DNA from: Ignavibacteriota bacterium
GTDB taxonomy: Bacteria; Bacteroidota; Ignavibacteria; UBA10030
Assembly (NCBI GenBank): GCA_963701295.1
Contig: OY969585.1
Coordinates: 192,001-256,000, forward strand
Direction of reading: 5' to 3'
Length of the DNA: 64,000 nucleotides
The notes under the pieces were generated by a model that did not search any database, was not told the origin of the DNA, and saw only the letters and a program-made list of their open reading frames with translations. Below are positions 3,322 through 64,000 of the stretch, piece by piece; position 1 is the stretch's first letter, and each line of letters starts with the position of its first letter. Made by a program: the position numbers and the translations under genes.

Positions 3322-4809
3322 TCAATAATTATCAATTTGCGCACGCTGAAGCCTGCCGCTGTAATCGATATACACGGATTTCCACTCGGTAAAAAAATCG
3401 TACACCGCCCAGCCGCCTTCGCGGTGACCATTTCCGGTCTGCTTCACCCCGCCAAATGGTAAATGCGCTTCTGCACCAATTGTCGGTACATTGATGTACG
3501 TGATGCCCGCCTGAATGTCACGGATTGCAGCAAATGCTTTATTCACATCCCGAGTGTACACAGAGGAAGATAAACCGTAGATTGTTCCATTTAAAATTCC
3601 AACAGCTTCTTCAAGTGATGTTGTTCGAATAACAGAAAGCACCGGACCGAAGATTTCTTCCTGAGCAATACGCATAGTTGGCTTCACATTGTCAAAGATC
3701 GTCGGCTCATAAAACCAACCCTTTGCCAAATCACCTTGATGTGCAACAGTACCGCCGCACACAAGTTGAGCACCTTCATTCTTTCCGATTTCTACATACG
3801 ACTGCACAATTTTTCGCTGAGCTTCATTGATACAAGGACCGACATCGATCGTCGGAAGAAGTCCGTTGCCCAGTTTAAGTCTCTTCGTCCGTTCCACCAA
3901 CATCTCCATAAACTTCTCATAGACATTTTCATGAAGAATCAATCGGCTTGTTGCTGTACAGCGCTGACCTGTAGTACCGAACGCACCCCATAACACACCA
4001 TCGAGAGCAAGAACGAGATCGGCATCATCCATCACAATTTGTGCGTTCTTGCCGCCAAGTTCCAATGAGACATGTTTGAGGGTCGCACTTGCATCCCGCG
4101 AAATTTGCCTGCCAATTTCGGATGAACCAGTAAATAAAATCATATCAACATCAGGATGTGTAACGATGGCATTGCCCACTTCGCCGCCAGCGCCATGGAC
4201 GAGATTCACAACGCCTTCTGGAACTCCCGCTTCCATCATTATTTGAATAAGTGTTGTCGCTGTCTTTGGTGTATCGCTTGCGGGTTTAAAGACAACCGTA
4301 TTGCCAGAAAGGATAGCTGGAAAAATTCCCCAAGTGGGAATTGCCATCGGAAAATTCCATGGAGTGATAATACCTGCAACACCAATCGGAACACGGATTG
4401 CCATGGCAAACTTGTTGGGAAGTTCAGACGGTACGGTGTGCCCAAACAACCGACGTCCTTCTGTCGCTGCATAGTACGCGGTATCGATCCCCTCTTGAAC
4501 ATCACCCCGAGTTTCATCGAGCACTTTTCCCATTTCACGTGTCATCTCACGAGCAATCTCTTCTTTATTCTTCACAAGAAGGTCGCCTATTTTTCTTAAG
4601 ATGTCGCCGCGTGCCGGCGCCGGCATTAATCGCCACTTCTCATATGTCGCACGAGCAGCTTTCACTGCTTCGTCAACATCTTCCTTTCCTGATTTTGGAA
4701 ACAATCCGACGATATCATCCCAATGAGCCGGATTACGGTTAGCAGACGTCTTTCCCGATTTCGCGTCAACCCACTTTCCGTTAATGAAGTTTTGAAATTT
4801 TTGGGGCAT
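3322..4809 (-). CDS. Aldehyde dehydrogenase (possibly aminoadipate-semialdehyde DH, next to lat)
   Basis: ITPWNFP, LELGGKN, GQRCT, EEIFGP; ATG at 4809 with GGAGG RBS chosen as start. Confidence 0.9.
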
Positions 4810-28295: not shown

Positions 28296-28558
28296 GTTCT
28301 TTCTTTTGTCTTGACACAAAAGGAAAGAACCAAAGAAAAAGTCAAGACTGACGAAAAATATGGAGTCGGAGACATAATATAGATACACGCTATAGCGTGC
28401 AACAACTTTAGACCTCCGGCTAGCTCCCATCGTTGACCAGAAAAAAACTCGTTCGCTAAAGCGAACTCAGACAATTTTCTGGTCGGGCACTTTGCTCGCC
28501 TTGTTTTACTTCCATATTTTTCTGAGGTCAATATAAAAGCTTTATCGATTTCGCGGGC
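28296..28558 (+). repeat. Structured intergenic repeat, copy 1 (MITE/REP-like)
   Basis: Near-identical to 31564-31855; nested stems (gaaaaatatgga/tccatatttttc, gaccagaaaa/ttttctggtc, gttcgc/gcgaac). Confidence 0.85.
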
Positions 28559-28846: not shown

Positions 28847-29758
28847 ATGAAACTATCTCTCCTCAATAAAATTCTTATTGCTCTTGGTGTTATTACCGCA
28901 GCGTCATTGCTTTTTGTGTGGATGGTCATGCGCCCAAAGTATGAAGCAACAGTTCTCGCCGAACGGTTCACCGTCATCCAGCAATTGCAGAAATCCTCCA
29001 TGGACGATCTTGATTATACTATCGAAGGTTGGTCTCATGTCCCGCGATTCATTATATCCCAAGTAACCGAGAAGCCGAACGAAGGAGAAACCATTCTCCG
29101 TATGATGATGACGCTTCACCCCGAAATTATTCAAATGAGAATCCATTCATCCGGACCTTCTGATGAACTCAGGAGCCAGAACACTTCTTATCCTTCGTTC
29201 AATGTGCAATTCTCAGACAGCGTTTGGGTGCGTGCAAAAGTGGACAGCACTCTTCACATTGCGTGGCTCAACCGGACAGAATTGCCGACGCAAATATTTG
29301 CTATGCAAACGGAGTTTCAAGTTCGCCAGATTCCCTTTGTACTGACGGTTATGTGGGATGCAAAACGACTCAATGATATTCTTGCGGGACTTCCCTTTGA
29401 CAAAGATTATTCCGTAAGCATTCACAGTTCATCAGGCGTCATCATGCAGAACGCTTCGTCCTTAAAATTTGATAGAGTTCATGCCTCGATAGACACGTTG
29501 AGCACTGTCCAAATCGTTCATGAAGGATCTCGTTCTTGGCGTATTCTTACGAGCGCCTTCCATTCTGCACAGCTTTGGATGGTTGTAGCCATCCCTGAAG
29601 AAATTTTTACAAAACCCGTGGAATATTTCTTGCTCTACTCCGCAGCATTGATCGTCGGACTAATGTTTCTTATGGCGATCCTCGGATGGCTGTTATCGCA
29701 CCAGATAAAACGATTCATAGAAAAGATGAAAACATGTGCCAACCCTGCCAGAGAGTAG
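28847..29758 (+). CDS. Membrane sensor fragment (TM-periplasmic Cache-like-TM) with no output domain
   Basis: Two TM segments flank a periplasmic region ending WMVVAIPE; the ORF stops ~20 aa after TM2. Confidence 0.6.
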   Translation: MKLSLLNKILIALGVITAASLLFVWMVMRPKYEATVLAERFTVIQQLQKSSMDDLDYTIEGWSHVPRFIISQVTEKPNEGETILRMMMTLHPEIIQMRIHSSGPSDELRSQNTSYPSFNVQFSDSVWVRAKVDSTLHIAWLNRTELPTQIFAMQTEFQVRQIPFVLTVMWDAKRLNDILAGLPFDKDYSVSIHSSSGVIMQNASSLKFDRVHASIDTLSTVQIVHEGSRSWRILTSAFHSAQLWMVVAIPEEIFTKPVEYFLLYSAALIVGLMFLMAILGWLLSHQIKRFIEKMKTCANPARE

Positions 29759-29891: not shown

Positions 29892-31541
29892 ATGAAAAAT
29901 CTAAGCCTTCAACAAAAAATCGTTTATCCTATTCTTGGAGCATTCGCGCTCGTCACCGGCATTGGTTCTTGGTACTTTGTATCGGCACAAATCGATGAAA
30001 CCGAGTCGTGGTATCGTGAAGAACTCCGCACCTTGGCAATAGCATCGGGATATATGCCGCATGCAACGGCGGATGAATTTATGCAGACAAAAGGGCTGCG
30101 ATTTCACCGCATTTTATTATCGGGAAACTCCGGTGCAAACGGAAAGAATGAACTCGAAACGAGAGCTGCAGCGGCATTCAACAAAGATCCGAACCTCGAA
30201 CTCTTTGCCGAAGAAGTATCCATGAACGACACTGTGTTCATGGCAGTTTTTACACCGACAACCATAAAACCCGAATGCGTGACGTGTCATGCTGATTTCG
30301 ATATTCAAGGATCCTTCGATCGTCAGGAAAGGAAAGTTATAGCATTATTCGGGTCTTCCGGATCGATGGCAGAAATTCATGCCAGAGAAACGAGAACCAA
30401 AATTATTATATTCACCATTACCCTCCTTGTCATTGCCGGCCTGGGATGGATCGTCCATCGTTCTATGAAAGTGATTCTTTTAGAACCGATGCGCGAGTTG
30501 AAACTCCAAACCGAAGTTGTTGCCAACTGCGACCTCCGAGCAGTAACAACACCGGCTCTGGAACGCAAATTGACCTCTGACGATGAAATGGGCCATGTGA
30601 CCCGTTCATTTGCAACCATGATCCACATGCTGCGGACAACCATACGGCATATGCATGATGCATCGAATGAAGTTGCAGAAGCATCGACACAGATCAGTTC
30701 GAGTATAGAAGAAATCGCAGCCGGTTCGCAAGAACAAATGAGCCAAGCACATGAAGTTACCAAAGCAATAGAAGACATGACACGAACGATCATGGAGAAC
30801 AGCAGGAGTGCAAACGAAACAGCAGAGACCGCACGGAAAGCCCGCCTGACGGCGGAAGCAGGGGGAATCATTGTTTCGGCAACTGCGGAGGGCATGAAAC
30901 GGATCGCACAAGCAACGAGCAAGAGTTCGGAGATAGCACAGGCATTAGAGCGGTCAAGCAAACAAATTGGAGAGATCGTGAAGCTCATCAATGATATCGC
31001 AGACCAAACAAGCCTCCTTGCCCTGAATGCAGCAACGGAGGCAGCGCGGGCAGGAGAACAAGGAAGAGGATTTAGCATTGTGGCTGATGAAGTCCGCAAA
31101 TTGTCGGAGCGGACAATGAAAGCCACAAAAGAGATTGAGGTGATGATCAAAAATATCCAGCGAGAAACCGGGCGGGCAGTTGCATCGATGGATGAAGGAA
31201 CATCGGAGGTAAAAGAAGGAATGAAATTAGCGGATCAAGCCGGACAATCATTGCGGGAAATCGTAAAGATCTCACAAAAAGTAACAGATATGATAACACA
31301 GATTGCAGTATCGAGCGAACAGCAGTCTGCCACAAGTGAGCAAATCTCTCAAAACGTGGAGGTTATTCATTCTGTGTCGAAACAAATGGCCGATAACACA
31401 AGAGAAGTTGCCTCTGCTTCCGAAGGGCTTAAGCATCTCACCGAACAACTACAGGAGACGGTCAATCAATTCAAACTTGATGAGGATGAGCAGAATAGAG
31501 ATACACGGAATGTTGGGATTGTTCGGAAGCAGCGCCTGTGA
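29892..31541 (+). CDS. Methyl-accepting chemotaxis protein with periplasmic CxxCH heme motif
   Basis: CVTCH, HAMP (DEMGHV..SF..M), [26 protein letters not shown]. Confidence 0.92.
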
Positions 31542-31563: not shown

Positions 31564-31855
31564 GTTCTTTCTTTTATCTTGACATCCCGATATCCATCGG
31601 GACAGACGCCAGGAAAGAACCAAAGAAAAAGTCAAGAGTGAAGAAAAATATGGAGTCGGAGACATAATATAGATACACGCTATAGCGTGCAACAACTTTA
31701 GGCCTCCGGCTGGCTTGCGTCATTGACCAGAAAAAACTCGTTCGCTGAAGCGAACTCAGACAATTTTCTGGTCGGGCATTTTGTTCGCTTTGTTTTTACC
31801 TCCATATTTTTCTAAGGTCGATAAAAAGAAAATAAATGTGCTGTCGATTTCGCGG
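31564..31855 (+). repeat. Structured intergenic repeat, copy 2
   Basis: Direct repeat of 28296-28558 with an extra tcccgat..atcggga hairpin in the first loop. Confidence 0.85.
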
Positions 31856-32839: not shown

Positions 32840-33024
32840 TTCGTGATTATTCCAATTATCAAAAGAATTTAAAAACTGTGCCGCAAAACGCAAAACAATA
32901 GAATGTGCAAAAGAATAAATAACGGCTTTTATTTTCGCCGCCCGTGCAACAAGCAATGAGCACTTAATTAATTTTAAAGTTCTGTGAATTACTATTACCA
33001 TTTGAGCACCTTGAAAGTTATTTG

Positions 33025-34053: not shown

Positions 34054-35434
34054 TTTAAAAAGGAAAGAGTCAAGTAAATAATATACTCCCGATGCGTTCC
34101 GCGCAATCGGAATGCAGAGTTCTTTAACATTAAGGACGACCGAATCCGTGCCGATGCCGCGTTCTCTATCGAATAGACAGGCGATTACCAGAGCAATGCC
34201 GTCCAAACCAGTTTACGGATTTACATTCACTCATTGAAGAAACGATGGTGAAAGCGTATCTCGTCGAGCGAGATGTTCCAGATATTACCACGGCACAGCG
34301 CACTCTCTTCCCAATCCAGCGAACGATCCCGACGCAGTCGGGATCAGTTAGGAAAGCGGGCTTGAGAGGCGCGGCCACTGCTGAGATTTATGCCGGCTGA
34401 TCGGCTGACCTTTGAGACCTTTATATATTGTTTTGTTTTTTAAGACATAGTAAACAATCTTCGCAAGTTCTTTGGCAACGACGGTTCGCGCAGTCGCCTC
34501 ATTGGAGCGACGAGCTAATTTCTGGAATAAGCGTTTGTATTCCGGATAGTACTGAATAGCATGAACAGCGGCATCGGAGAAGGCGATTTTGAGATACTTA
34601 TTGCCGTCTTTGCTGGAGCGATGGTGCACAGAGCGATTGGAGTTATCGGCAGCAGGGACGAGTCGGCAGTAAGAGACAAACTTTTTATCGGAGTCGAATC
34701 GTTCAATGCCGTCGATTTCAAGATACACCGTGAATGCGGTGAGCTTGCCGATACCTGGAATGTGCAAGAGCCGTTGAATATCGTCGTTGGGAATCAGCAC
34801 AGGATGGAGAGATTTTTCCAGCGAGAGGATCTGAGCAGTAAAAGTGTCTCTGGTATGTTGCAAGACAGCAAGTTGAAAACGATACGGATCCGGAACAGAG
34901 CCGTTAAATTTGGTCTGAATACTGTAGAGACGCAGAAGACTGGCAGTTCGTTGCTGAACGAGCCGTAGACGAATACGCATGGTATCGCGCAGGCCGCGTA
35001 GTTCTCGGCTGATTTTGTGAGCCCGTGGAATGAGTCCCTGTCGTAAGAGAAGAGCAAGAGTTTGCGAATCGACTTTATCTGTTTTAACTTTAGCATAACT
35101 GATGGCTTTGAGATATTTGGCGTGAGCAAGGACAAGCTCGATGCCGTGATCGCTGAGAAGATCGTTGAGCCAGTACCATCCTGTGGTAGACTCAACGACT
35201 GCGTGATGAGGACCGGGCAGAGAGTGGAAGTAATCAAGAACACGTTCATTGTTATTCTCGACACGTTGTCGCTTGATGACAGCACCAGTGTCATCAACAG
35301 TGGTGATAAAACAATTATCAGAATGCAAATCGATACCTGAGTAATACATGGGAATCTCCTTAGATTGTGGATGTTGGTGACCTAGAGAATTATCAATGTA
35401 CATAATCGGGAGATTCCTTTTTGGTAATATCCAG
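34054..35434 (-). mobile_element. IS110-family (IS1111-type) element in attC, copy 1 (1381 bp)
   Basis: CCAG at both junctions, sub-terminal IR AAAAAGGAA/TTCCTTTTT, long non-coding region 3' of tnp, no TSD beyond the core. Confidence 0.92.
34348..35349 (-). CDS. IS110-family DEDD transposase/recombinase
   Basis: YSGIDLH, VVESTTGWYW, KTDKVDS, IPGIG; ATG at 35349 with AGGAGA RBS. Confidence 0.93.
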   Translation of the reverse strand: MYYSGIDLHSDNCFITTVDDTGAVIKRQRVENNNERVLDYFHSLPGPHHAVVESTTGWYWLNDLLSDHGIELVLAHAKYLKAISYAKVKTDKVDSQTLALLLRQGLIPRAHKISRELRGLRDTMRIRLRLVQQRTASLLRLYSIQTKFNGSVPDPYRFQLAVLQHTRDTFTAQILSLEKSLHPVLIPNDDIQRLLHIPGIGKLTAFTVYLEIDGIERFDSDKKFVSYCRLVPAADNSNRSVHHRSSKDGNKYLKIAFSDAAVHAIQYYPEYKRLFQKLARRSNEATARTVVAKELAKIVYYVLKNKTIYKGLKGQPISRHKSQQWPRLSSPLS

Positions 35435-38168: not shown

Positions 38169-38364
38169 GCCTAACCAAGCACTCAAGCTGACCGGATGAG
38201 CGTGGGTGCTTTACGCATGGCTGATGGTGGGTTTAAGTTTTTATTATTAAGTTCTTTGTACTTCATAACATTTGTGAAATTAAATTCGTTATCAGCATGA
38301 ACTTGTTTCGTTTTCAGCAACTTGAAAGTATTCAGTGCGGCAGCTTAGTGCCCGTCCGTTATGT
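38169..38364 (+). repeat. attC 5 (196 bp)
   Basis: gcctaac-caagcactcaagc...gcttagtgc..gttatgt. Confidence 0.9.
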
Positions 38365-38647
38365 TGCACAGGCAGCGCACACAGTATGTGTTACTTGCGG
38401 GGTTGGGTAATCGCGTTCTAACGGCTTTAAGTTTTAGTTACATTGTACAGATTTAGATTTTGGTTGCTTTCTATAAGTTACGTTGTCAACAAGTTTTGTT
38501 TTGTACGAGAATAAAAGCAGTGCAAGTTAAGTTCCTCAAAAGAATCTCGGCGATGCGCTGCCTGTGCTCAGAATAATTCAAGTTTTGATGGTGGTAGCAA
38601 GTATTGTTTTGCAGAAAGTTTGTACAACAAAGAAACTATAACATAAC
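38358..38647 (+). other. Gene-less cassette 6
   Basis: No ORF >=60 aa; 14-bp IR 38366-38379/38554-38567. Confidence 0.85.
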
Positions 38648-38798
38648 CAGCAACTCAAGCTGACGGTTGGAGCTCGGTACAAAATTCATGGCGAGAAACA
38701 CACGTTATTTTTATGGCGCAAAATAGACGTGTGGCATGTTTGGTTGATTGCATGACTCGTAATTATCAACGCCGCAGCTTAGTTGCCAATCGTTATGT
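38641..38798 (+). repeat. attC 6 (158 bp)
   Basis: acataac...gttatgt. Confidence 0.92.
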
Positions 38799-39081
38799 TG
38801 CACAGGCAGCGCACACAGTATGTGTTACTTGCGGGGTTGGGTAATCGCGTTCTAACGGCTTTAAGTTTTAGTTACATTGTACAGATTTAGATTTTGGTTG
38901 CTTTCTATAAGTTACGTTGTCAACAAGTTTTGTTTTGTACGAGAATAAAAGCAGTGCAAGTTAAGTTCCTCAAAAGAATCTCGGCGATGCGCTGCCTGTG
39001 CTCAGAATAATTAAAGTTTTTTTGGTGTTAGCAAGTATTGTTTTGTTGAAAGTTTGTACAACAAAGAAACTATAACATAAC
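38792..39081 (+). other. Gene-less cassette 7 (near copy of cassette 6)
   Basis: 434-bp offset duplicate; IR 38800-38813/38988-39001. Confidence 0.85.
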
Positions 39082-42030: not shown

Positions 42031-42189
42031 ACCTAACCAGCGGCTCAAGCTGACCGGATGAGCGTTGGTACGTTAAGCATGGCGAGCATAAGTTTTGGTT
42101 TTTAATAATAAAGTTTTCAGCATGAACTTGTTTCGTGTGGTGTATTTTGAAAGTAATCAGTGCGGCAGCTTAGCCGCCGTCCGTTAGGG
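42031..42189 (+). repeat. attC 10 (159 bp)
   Basis: acctaac-cagcggctcaagc...gcttagccgc..gttaggg. Confidence 0.92.
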
Positions 42190-42627: not shown

Positions 42628-44008
42628 TTTAAAAAGGAAAGAGTCAAGTAAATAATATACTCCCGATGCGTTCCGCGCAATCGGAATGCAGAGTTCTTTA
42701 ACATTAAGGACGACCGAATCCGTGCCGATGCCGCGTTCTCTATCGAATAGACAGGCGATTACCAGAGCAATGCCGTCCAAACCAGTTTACGGATTTACAT
42801 TCACTCATTGAAGAAACGATGGTGAAAGCGTATCTCGTCGAGCGAGATGTTCCAGATATTACCACGGCACAGCGCACTCTCTTCCCAATCCAGCGAACGA
42901 TCCCGACGCAGTCGGGATCAGTTAGGAAAGCGGGCTTGAGAGGCGCGGCCACTGCTGAGATTTATGCCGGCTGATCGGCTGACCTTTGAGACCTTTATAT
43001 ATTGTTTTGTTTTTTAAGACATAGTAAACAATCTTCGCAAGTTCTTTGGCAACGACGGTTCGCGCAGTCGCCTCATTGGAGCGACGAGCTAATTTCTGGA
43101 ATAAGCGTTTGTATTCCGGATAGTACTGAATAGCATGAACAGCGGCATCGGAGAAGGCGATTTTGAGATACTTATTGCCGTCTTTGCTGGAGCGATGGTG
43201 CACAGAGCGATTGGAGTTATCGGCAGCAGGGACGAGTCGGCAGTAAGAGACAAACTTTTTATCGGAGTCGAATCGTTCAATGCCGTCGATTTCAAGATAC
43301 ACCGTGAATGCGGTGAGCTTGCCGATACCTGGAATGTGCAAGAGCCGTTGAATATCGTCGTTGGGAATCAGCACAGGATGGAGAGATTTTTCCAGCGAGA
43401 GGATCTGAGCAGTAAAAGTGTCTCTGGTATGTTGCAAGACAGCAAGTTGAAAACGATACGGATCCGGAACAGAGCCGTTAAATTTGGTCTGAATACTGTA
43501 GAGACGCAGAAGACTGGCAGTTCGTTGCTGAACGAGCCGTAGACGAATACGCATGGTATCGCGCAGGCCGCGTAGTTCTCGGCTGATTTTGTGAGCCCGT
43601 GGAATGAGTCCCTGTCGTAAGAGAAGAGCAAGAGTTTGCGAATCGACTTTATCTGTTTTAACTTTAGCATAACTGATGGCTTTGAGATATTTGGCGTGAG
43701 CAAGGACAAGCTCGATGCCGTGATCGCTGAGAAGATCGTTGAGCCAGTACCATCCTGTGGTAGACTCAACGACTGCGTGATGAGGACCGGGCAGAGAGTG
43801 GAAGTAATCAAGAACACGTTCATTGTTATTCTCGACACGTTGTCGCTTGATGACAGCACCAGTGTCATCAACAGTGGTGATAAAACAATTATCAGAATGC
43901 AAATCGATACCTGAGTAATACATGGGAATCTCCTTAGATTGTGGATGTTGGTGACCTAGAGAATTATCAATGTACATAATCGGGAGATTCCTTTTTGGTA
44001 ATATCCAG
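42628..44008 (-). mobile_element. IS110-family (IS1111-type) element in attC, copy 2
   Basis: Appears identical to 34054-35434; same insertion nucleotide and orientation. Confidence 0.92.
42922..43923 (-). CDS. IS110-family DEDD transposase/recombinase
   Basis: Same protein as 34348-35349. Confidence 0.93.
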   Translation of the reverse strand: MYYSGIDLHSDNCFITTVDDTGAVIKRQRVENNNERVLDYFHSLPGPHHAVVESTTGWYWLNDLLSDHGIELVLAHAKYLKAISYAKVKTDKVDSQTLALLLRQGLIPRAHKISRELRGLRDTMRIRLRLVQQRTASLLRLYSIQTKFNGSVPDPYRFQLAVLQHTRDTFTAQILSLEKSLHPVLIPNDDIQRLLHIPGIGKLTAFTVYLEIDGIERFDSDKKFVSYCRLVPAADNSNRSVHHRSSKDGNKYLKIAFSDAAVHAIQYYPEYKRLFQKLARRSNEATARTVVAKELAKIVYYVLKNKTIYKGLKGQPISRHKSQQWPRLSSPLS

Positions 44009-44744: not shown

Positions 44745-44903
44745 GGCTAACCAGCGGCTCAAGCTGACCGGATGAGCGTTGGTACGTTAAGCATTGCGAT
44801 CATAGGTTTTAGTTCTTAATAATAAACTTTTCAGCATGAACTTGTTTCGTTTAGTACATTTTGAAAGTTATCAGTGCGGCAGCTTAGCCGCCATCCGTTA
44901 GGC
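44745..44903 (+). repeat. attC 12 (159 bp)
   Basis: ggctaac...gttaggc. Confidence 0.92.
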
Positions 44904-49734: not shown

Positions 49735-49869
49735 CACACGAATTACTTATGGCATAACAATACAATTTATAGAAAAGTTAAAAATAGTGGAGACCAGATC
49801 CCACTTTAAAAAACGGGGCGACATTAAAGAGCCAAATGATTAGGGAAATCAATAAGAAGGGAAATAACA

Positions 49870-52287: not shown

Positions 52288-52483
52288 GGCTAACCAGCGG
52301 CTCAAGCTGACCGGATGAGCGTGGGAGCAATTTGCATTGCTAAGGTGGTTTTAGGTTTTTATTAGTAGCTTTTTAGTACTTCGTCGGTTGAGTAATTTAA
52401 ATATGGTCATCAGCATGAACTTGTTTCGTTTTGTGTAACATTAAAGTTGGTCACGCGGTCAGCTTAGCCGCAGTCCGTTAGGC
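52288..52483 (+). repeat. attC 19 (196 bp)
   Basis: ggctaac...gttaggc. Confidence 0.9.
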
Positions 52484-62106: not shown

Positions 62107-62481
62107 ATGGAAGACAAAAAAGAGTATCAACTTGTGACTTCTGTGAATGAAGGAATCCTTGAAATCATTATCACAGGCGAAGTACCGTCGAACGCAGTTG
62201 ATAAACTACTGAGTGAAGTAAATGCTATTGGAAAAACAATGAACGTCAGTCTTTTACTTGTAGATGCCCGTTCTGCAAAAGGAAGGATTGGATTTGGAGA
62301 ATCCTATTTTCATGTTAGAGGATCCCCTGCCGACATGCCGAAGATGAAAATAGCTGTTGTAGACCTCGAAGAGAATGCAGGTTTGCAATCGTTTCAGGAG
62401 ATTACAGCCAAGAATGCCGGCCTGTCGTTAAAATGGTTTACAGATATCGATGCCGCGAGAACTTGGCTTAAGGGTAAGTAA
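62107..62481 (+). CDS. Cassette 24 STAS/SEC14 (SpoIIAA-like) small protein
   Basis: AAGGAG RBS; LLVDAR, KIAVV, F.E..A.NAG, FTD..AA..WL. Confidence 0.75.
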   Translation: MEDKKEYQLVTSVNEGILEIIITGEVPSNAVDKLLSEVNAIGKTMNVSLLLVDARSAKGRIGFGESYFHVRGSPADMPKMKIAVVDLEENAGLQSFQEITAKNAGLSLKWFTDIDAARTWLKGK

Positions 62482-62561
62482 TAAGAAGGCAGCCTAACCA
62501 GGTACTGTGGTAAAAGTCAAGCGTAAAGCAATATTTCAAAGAACACACACAGAAGAAAGAG

Positions 62562-63472
62562 TTAGGAAAAGGTACTAGCGATAGATAAAGTGCGCGAATG
62601 ATAATTTGTAATGTAAGGCGAATTAGATTTCCAGAGCGTGGAGATCAGGAGTAATAATTTACGAGCGACAGCAACGATGGCAAGCTTTTTATTTTTGCCT
62701 TTAGCAATAAGACGTTGATAGAGTTCTTTGAGATCAGGATGAGCCCGACAGGCAGAGAGGGCAGGCATAAAGAGAGCTTTACGGATAAACTTGTTGCCCT
62801 TTTTTGAGATAGAAGTTTTTCCTTTCTTCAAGCCAGAGTCGTTAAAGACGATGTCGAAACCAGCGTAGCTGGTAAGCTGCTTTTGATTGGAGACAAGCTC
62901 AAAACACCTAGTTTCTGCCAGGACGGTGAGAATGGTAATATCGCCGAGTCCTTTTGTGGTGGAGATTTTCTTCAGACGGAGAGCCAGATCAGGTTCGGTC
63001 TTGACCAGGTTGTGGAGTTCTTTATGAATAAGAGCTATCTGCCGGTTAAGGAATCTGAGAAGGTGCTGTTTGCGTTTGAACGATTCACGGTGAGGTTTGA
63101 AGGAGACATTGAGAGCGTGACAATGACGGCGGCATCGAGAGGATCGGTTTTAGATTTGGATTCGAGGGATTTGGCATAATTTCTGATTTTATTTGGCAGG
63201 ATAACGGCAACTTGATACCCCTGCTGGAAGAGGAAGTGAGAGAGTTGTTCGTAATAGACGCCAGTAGCTTCCATGACAAAGACCAGAGGAATGTCGTCGG
63301 AGAGGATATATTTCTTGAGCCATCGCAGAAAGAGTTTGAATCCTGCGAGTGAGTTTTTGAAGGATTTTGAAGCAGATAGGTTTATTTCTTGTTGAGTATT
63401 GATGGTAGCGAATCTGGCATCGAAGGATTTGTAAGAGACATCGATACCGATGGTTTGTTTTAAGATCGTCAT
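62562..63472 (-). pseudogene. IS110 recombinase with internal deletion/frameshift at ~63121
   Basis: GIDVS, MEATGVY, KTDPLDA, then other frame KGLG..T...LAE, YAGFD....SG, GNK.IRKAL.MPA, AVARKLL. Confidence 0.9.
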
Positions 63473-63499
63473 AGCAAAAGCTCCTTGAAATAGAGGTTA

Positions 63500-63700
63500 A
63501 GAGAAGAAATACATTGGCAGCTTCCTTGTGATCTTGACTCGTGCGTTATACGGGATTCCACGGGAAAGAAATATGGATCTCAAAGTACTGTTCAGATTCT
63601 TGAGAAGCGGAAAGTCATAGGGAGATGTATCTGGTTAACGATATTCTTCTGGGAAGATATCTAGCGGCTCCTATCTCTCCTATGACTTTGCCAAGGGACC
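63500..63700 (-). ncRNA. Predicted bridge RNA (ends approximate)
   Basis: Stem 63611-63626/63673-63689 encloses guides GAGCCGCT and TAACCAG (attC target); second loop has ACAGTAC and ACGAG (donor junction). Confidence 0.8.
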
Positions 63701-63773
63701 AGGATACGAAAATAATTGTCACAGACTCAACATACGAGCGGCACCAAATAAAGATTATGATTAAGGAGAGACT

Positions 63774-64000
63774 ATGAAAACACTTGCTGGACGTCGACGA
63801 AGTATCGGGCTCGCTGGTGCTGCACTCTGGTTATTTGTGATTAGTTTCGTCTGTGTCACATGGTCGCTTCTGGTAATCGGAACACCGATGGCAAGACTGG
63901 TGCTCATCGGCACGTTTGTTCTTATGGGTGCCCTCCTTGCAACCGACATAGTGGTGATTCGTGCGGCGTTGGGCTTGCCCGTTAGCATTGCACCGCGAAC
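63774..64000 (+). CDS. Cassette 25 membrane protein, runs off the window
   Basis: AAGGAG RBS; MKTLAGRRRSIGLAGAALWLF..., open to the window end. Confidence 0.65.
   Translation, partial: MKTLAGRRRSIGLAGAALWLFVISFVCVTWSLLVIGTPMARLVLIGTFVLMGALLATDIVVIRAALGLPVSIAPR

Follow-up and report, generated by a model that had tools for sequence, protein, structure and literature searches.

The window, i.e. the 64,000-nucleotide stretch of an Ignavibacteriota genome that was analysed (assembly GCA_963701295.1, contig OY969585.1), contains an integron cassette array that starts at about position 33000 on the plus strand and runs past the window end, with attC sites of about 180 nt. The attC starts have the form GCCTAACCAG-NNNN-TCAAGCTGAC and the ends the form CAGCTTAG...CCGTTAGGC; the four variable bases pair with the other attC arm, giving the subtypes CGGC, GCGC and CAAC. 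Genome-wide we counted 105 attC starts in many clusters on both strands (49 of type GCGC, 19 CAAC and 9 CGGC). A single integron integrase exceeds the curated cut-off; as its gene, at G000:C1:3566721-3567662, is far from the window, the array represents an attC cluster remote from the integrase. The cassette ORFs are mostly without a Pfam family, and none of them matched a drug-resistance family.

Several smaller features accompany the array. Just upstream of it lies a repeat of about 190 nt (28321-28507 and 31611-31796, 94% identical), which flanks an ORF at 28847-29758 and a chemotaxis-receptor ORF at 29892-31541. Within the array, a direct repeat of 300 nt (38332-38631 and 38766-39065; 95% identical, 434 nt apart), which includes two attC starts (38644 and 39078), looks like a short cassette that was duplicated, and the Rfam DUF805 RNA motif (67.4 bits) is found at 49782-49850 on the plus strand, between an attC and the next cassette ORF.

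Near the window end the array is interrupted by a mobile element that reads on the minus strand and consists of the following parts.

62500-63738, minus strand: IS110-group element of 1239 nt, with a CT core at both junctions
63739..63745, minus strand: left target flank (LT), GGTGCCG, matching six of seven guide positions and lying outside any intact attC
63737..63738, minus strand: left copy of the CT core, where the homology to all relatives starts
63473..63736, minus strand: left non-coding end of 264 nt, beginning with the right-donor sequence CGTATG
63729..63734, minus strand: -10-like half, TATGTT, of a putative promoter that would form only at the circle junction
63512..63697, minus strand: predicted bridge RNA core of 186 nt, a closing stem around two stem-loops that each have an internal loop
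63663..63671, minus strand: left target guide, GGAGCCGCT, in the sense of LT plus core
63640..63661, minus strand: inner hairpin of the target-binding loop, with compensatory changes at three pairs in relatives
63631..63637, minus strand: right target guide, TAACCAG, the reverse complement of CT-GGTTA
63583..63591, minus strand: left donor guide, ACAGTACTT, matching the right end ACAGTAC-CT with a U opposite the first core base
63538..63542, minus strand: contiguous part of the right donor guide, ACGAG, the reverse complement of CT-CGT
63122..63472, minus strand: N-terminal part of the recombinase (DEDD/RuvC-like domain), homologous up to ...KTDPLDAAVI
63121..63122, minus strand: deletion junction, with 128 nt missing and a frame shift
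62562..63116, minus strand: C-terminal frame of the recombinase (remainder of the coiled coil and PF02371 domain), open to the stop and out of frame with the N-terminal part
62502..62561, minus strand: right non-coding end of 60 nt, containing the left donor ACAGTAC (62508-62502) and a -35-like TTGACT (62520-62515)
62500..62501, minus strand: right copy of the CT core, as read in the sequence
62486..62499, minus strand: right target flank, GGTTAGGCTGCC, the R'' end of an attC (plus strand GGCAGCCTAACC)

On the minus strand the left junction thus reads GGTGCCG-CT-CGTATG and the right junction ACAGTAC-CT-GGTTAGG, the right flank being situated directly 3' of the stop of the cassette ORF 62107-62481. 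On the left, no attC is found beyond CGGC; a ribosome-binding site and the next cassette ORF come next. The element very probably represents a decayed member of the IS110 group, related to IS621 and ISCro4, that belongs to a clade of bridge-RNA elements specialised on the attC sites of integrons. This assignment was derived from comparative sequence analysis as outlined below.

The N-terminal ORF (63472-63035) carries PF01548 (E 6.8e-19), and the motifs GIDVS, VMEATG and KTDPxDA are present in the recombinase alignment; the C-terminal fragments carry PF02371, the domain with the conserved serine, ISKKG being aligned to MSKAG of ISCro4. An intact relative of 342 aa (P0004) matched the PDB chains of ISCro4 (E 9e-33) and IS621 (E 1e-28). 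With 962 proteins at E <= 1e-10, relatives of 339-345 aa are frequent; full-length open copies occur in three of 40 related genomes. The window copy lacks about 128-131 nt at element position 617/620 that are present in every relative; relative to L047 and L034 the gap measures 128 nt and falls between window positions 63122 and 63121, and contigs from relatives continue into unlike sequence at 63122/63123. Because of the length of the gap the frame shifts, and as a consequence the copy cannot move by itself, in line with the broken recombinase described in the initial annotation: the N-terminal ORF ends at 63035 and the C-terminal part (63116-62562) lies in a different frame. Left of the gap the element shares 98% identity with the genome's one further copy (G000 3542248-3543612, about 23 kb from the integrase gene), and right of it 97.5% identical to L047 versus 83% to the second copy; given that the identity partner switches at the gap, the window copy is a mosaic. 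The second copy itself carries a single additional base in the KTDP-DAA codons.

Upstream of the recombinase gene, the RNA core at 63512-63697 is the only match in the window to a covariance model of the bridge RNA (215 bits). The underlying alignment comprises 24 distinct left ends and was folded with RNAalifold, resulting in a consensus structure of 50 pairs in which 99.5% of the cells are paired and 7 pairs show compensatory changes. None of 500 shuffles reached the observed values for pairing and compensation, and pairing dropped to 36-46% when the partners were slid against each other. In the consensus fold, the two target guides are enclosed by a stem (63688-63674 with 63625-63612) and separated by an inner hairpin (63661-63653 with 63649-63640), which is the stem-enclosed loop that had been proposed earlier from the letters of the window copy. 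All four guide motifs read there on the minus strand lie where they had been placed, with GAGCCGCT of the left target guide at 63670-63663 and ACAGTAC of the donor loop at 63591-63585; the proposed match of the donor loop to the element's own ends likewise holds, as ACAGTACTT fits ACAGTAC-CT and ACGAG fits CT-CGT. The target-loop hairpin is also seen when a single sequence is folded with the segment offset by 9 nt (z -2.46). Among the aligned left ends, one mismatch in the closing stem (column 3) is unique to the window copy. Helix 5 of the RNAalifold fold, in which parts of both donor guides are paired, is invariant and for that reason may not be real. No Rfam bridge-RNA family matched, either at gathering thresholds over the whole window or at E up to 10 over 62400-64000, although Rfam 15 may hold no such family. 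In a comparison with four runs, peat metatranscriptome contigs from three libraries, 85-99% alike, cover parts of the elements of relatives including the left end (X16, 63403-63694; X17, 63573-63730); as these contigs come from relatives and RNA libraries can hold DNA, they are no proof of transcription.

Transcription, RNA binding and catalysis are properties that we infer from the homology to IS621. By analogy, the element would excise as a circle in which the joined right and left ends create a promoter, TTGACT-N17-TATGTT. This junction promoter would then transcribe the bridge RNA of about 186 nt from the left end. The target loop would pair with both strands of the target, GGAGCCGCU corresponding to the left side plus the CT core and UAACCAG to the CT core plus the right side, and the donor loop, through ACAGUACUU and ACGAG, would pair with the joined ends of the element itself, after which the DEDD/serine recombinase would exchange strands at the CT core. 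Upon joining of the ends, TTGACT (62520-62515) and TATGTT (63734-63729) are indeed 17 nt apart, so that the junction sequence given in the initial annotation follows from the two ends, and both hexamers of the predicted promoter are conserved in relatives. A promoter scan of the left end of the integrated copy yielded no sigma-70-like site on the minus strand, which fits a dependence on the junction promoter and proves nothing. The design corresponds to that described for IS621 and ISCro4 (PMC11208160), namely in the two protein domains, in a long left end that specifies an RNA of about 180 nt, one internal loop serving the target and one the donor, in a left guide that has the sense of LT plus core, in a right guide that is the reverse complement of the core plus the right target (RT), and in the CT core; the predicted promoter at the circle junction would likewise agree. 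It deviates from IS621 in that the natural target is attC and not one of the REP-type targets described there, and in that the right guide pairs over 7 nt as compared to 4; moreover, a single closing stem surrounds both loops, unlike in IS621/ISCro4.

The target loop (GGAGCCGCT plus TAACCAG) fits the bottom strand of CGGC-type attC sites, of which nine in the genome are intact, three of them in the window.

42034..42046, plus strand: free attC in which 13 nt fit both target guides exactly, found by sequence search
44748..44760, plus strand: free attC in which 13 nt fit both target guides exactly, found by sequence search
52291..52303, plus strand: free attC in which 13 nt fit both target guides exactly, found by sequence search

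The exact string TAACCAGCGGCTC starts at these positions in the 10th, 12th and 19th attC start in order, precisely the sites that had been listed earlier as intact targets. Allowing up to two mismatches, the number of target matches is 19, against 0.87 expected by chance. By sequence, the landing point is the CT that separates the R'' box from the L'' arm in attC, with the element directed against the cassettes, and the guide allele of the window copy fits CGGC-type sites. The four variable L'' nucleotides lie within the stretch read by the left guide, so that guide alleles fit particular attC subtypes. Insertion leaves no scar and a core dinucleotide at either side: the flanks of the second copy rebuild an intact GCGC-type attC around a single CT.

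Comparison with relatives indicates that attC is the regular target of the clade. Outside this genome, the right junction reads CT-GGTTA in 29 of the 31 cases anchored by BLAST, the exceptions being L005, which abuts the end of an IS1111-type element, and L046 (CT-GTTTAGG). For the left junctions, which were anchored by pattern, the attC arm GTCAGCTTGA is found in 20 of 26, and the remaining six terminate in (G/T)AGxxx or GAATGA. Hence the outcome that the initial annotation had named as counter-evidence, other copies lying in non-attC targets unrelated to the guides, is not what these junctions display. Among the right-end pattern matches, a set that includes distant relatives and some spurious matches, the 12-mers of the further flank differ in 43 of 45, implying that the insertion sites are largely separate.

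Within this close clade the right target guide and both donor guides are invariant; the left target guide varies and follows the flank. The guide GAGCGC is found with the flank GAGCGC (L031, L032), GAGCGU with GAGCGC, via a G:U wobble, in nine of the 11 loci with that guide, GAGCGA with GAGCGA (L046, and L009 with the first guide base changed), GAATGA with GAATGA (L007) and GGAGCCG with GGAGCCG (L047). Over 25 rows, i.e. after removal of a duplicate locus (L003), two loci with guide indels (L006 and L054) and one whose sequence equals that of L038 (L040), 123 of 150 non-core positions match between left guide and flank (136 with wobble). The permutation means were 109.8 (122.2 with wobble) and none of 20000 permutations reached the observed values, a test that overstates independence because the loci share ancestry. 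Some insertions run against this reading: the second copy has the guide of the window copy and is located in a GCGC-type attC with two mismatches, and elements with a GAGCGG guide are found at sites with one to three mismatches (L030, L039 with three, and L041-L043). L034 and L008 speak against it as well, as do the guide indels of L006 and L054.

The second copy shows two peculiarities. Its left junction (L002 1501-1512) reads CT-GGTATG, where all other copies have CT-CGTATG; the G after the core is the base of the target at that position, as if exchange or repair had extended one base beyond the core. In addition, the attC in which it resides (L002 1290-1500) is shortened, the inner part leading to a ribosome-binding site and the next gene start and lacking the L'/R' end.

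A distant clade, with a protein identity of only 35-40%, served as a control, since the covariance model was built from the close clade only. The model nevertheless matched upstream of the recombinase gene in twelve of its loci, with E-values from 2e-6 to 5e-12, and it gave no match in a clade at 29-32% identity. At the position of the right guide the distant clade has GCGCAAG, next to right flanks that read CT-TGCGC or CT-TGTGC, and its donor is CT-CATAT with the guide ATATGAG. From one clade to the other, guide and flank therefore change together, and only the close clade targets attC. The right donor guide also covaries with the right-donor sequence (RD) in the distant clade; given that neither donor guide varies within the close clade, both are assigned from complementarity and from this comparison. 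Other properties of the 35-40% clade are a donor left half, ACAGTAC-CT, that is held in common and adjoins CT-TGCGCC (L011, L012, L014, L055-L060), and a left guide that matches the flank in L059 and does so neither in L011 nor in L014.

The site of the window copy itself calls for a separate explanation, and we consider the case evenly balanced that its present setting is no simple record of an insertion into a CGGC-type attC: either a collapsed attC remnant was hit, or the rest of the attC was lost in a later rearrangement that joined parts of two diverged elements. On the plus strand the element is followed by CGGC, ACCAAATAAAG, a ribosome-binding site and the ATG of the next cassette at 63774, with no L'', L' or R' parts. 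Two of the 17 listed attC ends have CGGCA after GTTAGG, so that a pair of CGGC repeats could have recombined by deletion. Elsewhere a relative occupies a collapsed site, CTAACC-AG-CGGCTCCCC-GTTAG (L096), and L047, which has the guide of the window copy, is likewise without an obvious attC on its left. The switch of identity partner at the recombinase deletion points in the direction of two joined elements. Against this, the target loop still matches the flanks at six of seven left positions, the core and all five right positions, which makes a direct insertion possible without any later event. An uninterrupted version of this cassette boundary was found in none of the 40 related genomes, where only paralogues occur whose similarity begins at the ORF.

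A very unlikely alternative to guidance by the RNA is that attC is recognised by the recombinase protein, or via the folded attC as with integron integrases, and that the complementarity is incidental. The sites are structured, and the right flank and right guide of the close clade, being invariant, provide no covariation there. Nevertheless, recognition by protein or fold is hard to reconcile with a left guide that covaries with the left flank, with the joint change of right guide and right flank in the distant clade, and with the fact that the attC sites of L024, L025 and L047 are targeted despite their differences outside the 13-nt match.

The preferred reading, an RNA-guided IS110-group element, also has to be set against the second type of element in the array, of which the window holds two copies.

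34054..35430, minus strand: IS1111-type element, flanked in its attC by a CCAG on each side (CTGG in the element's own orientation), with a long non-coding end downstream of the gene
42628..44004, minus strand: second, identical IS1111-type copy, at the same attC position in a CGGC-type attC

Both copies have CTGG at both junctions, containing the CT that is used by the IS621-like element, and elements of the two kinds read against the cassette direction. The initial annotation was therefore right about the shared attC nucleotide and orientation; its description of the two elements as unrelated does not hold, as the IS1111-type recombinase has the same domains (PF01548 and PF02371) and is 26% identical to the IS621-like one. 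It is scarcely credible that the IS621-like element itself belongs to the known IS1111-attC group (ISKpn4, ISPst6 and relatives), with which the target region and orientation would agree, considering that both the RNA and the long non-coding end are located upstream of its gene with only 60 nt downstream, that the identity to the IS1111-type recombinase is as low as just mentioned, and that the PDB chain of IS621 scores 104 bits with its family versus 29 bits with the IS1111-type.

The IS1111-type element is present in the genome in nine identical and two diverged copies. The nine identical copies and one diverged copy are located in attC sites, with CTGG at the right junction (ATGG in the diverged copy); the other diverged match ends short of the right end. 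In view of the nine identical copies the element has probably been active recently. Five of these are in CAAC-type attC sites, three in CGGC and one in GCAC; none is in the GCGC type, the commonest.

Placed among known systems, the IS621-like element has the layout of the IS110 group, with the long non-coding end upstream of the gene (Durrant 2024, PMC11208160, as far as available to us). The available parts of PMC11187229 describe how the IS1111-attC group (ISKpn4, ISPst6, ISPa25) targets the attC end in a fixed orientation, and how a seekRNA, shown for ISKpn4 and ISPst6, directs targeting by two short RNA segments. The element studied here is alike in using one attC end, a fixed orientation and two short RNA segments; it differs in that its RNA is encoded upstream instead of downstream of the gene, and in a junction repeat of 2 nt as compared to 4 nt (CTGG) in that group. 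From the same partial source, ISEc21 is an IS110-type element with an upstream seekRNA that targets a conserved stretch inside IS3-family transposase genes, and in its natural relative ISMch6 guide and target have changed together; ISEc21 thus resembles our element in taking its guide from the upstream non-coding region, unlike it in having an IS3-family transposase gene and not attC as target. A literature search for an attC targeter of the IS110 group returned no report, and the portion of the PMC11208160 supplements that was searched contains no attC-type target motif. Within the compass of these partly available sources, the mechanism (bridge-RNA IS110 elements) and the targeting of attC (IS1111 group) are already known, and an attC targeter of the IS110 group would be new.

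The clade offers a natural test of bridge-RNA targeting, with dozens of independent insertions into one structured, repeated target and guide alleles paired with its subtypes. Tentatively, and with somewhat less than even confidence, we propose that this IS110-group lineage may have converged on the same attC CT independently of the IS1111-attC group, that the left-guide alleles (GAGCGC/U, GAGCCG, GAGCGA, GAGCGG and GAATGA) could constitute a natural reprogramming series tracking the L'' nucleotides of the hosts, and that two RNA-guided lineages may share, or compete for, attC. With attC targeting now also found in an IS110 subgroup that has its RNA at the opposite end of the element, convergence on a single attC dinucleotide is directly testable. 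Each insertion splits an attC, and the elements may thereby freeze parts of cassette arrays; if the proposed convergence is true, the integron integrase should be unable to excise a cassette whose attC is split in this way. The intact natural relatives are furthermore a source of recombinases with a 7-nt right guide.

The two kinds of element also meet directly. In L005 (around position 3900) and L094 (around 2603), the right end of an IS621-like element is immediately followed by CTGG-ATATTAC, the left end of an IS1111-type element, and the two are stacked at one attC position.
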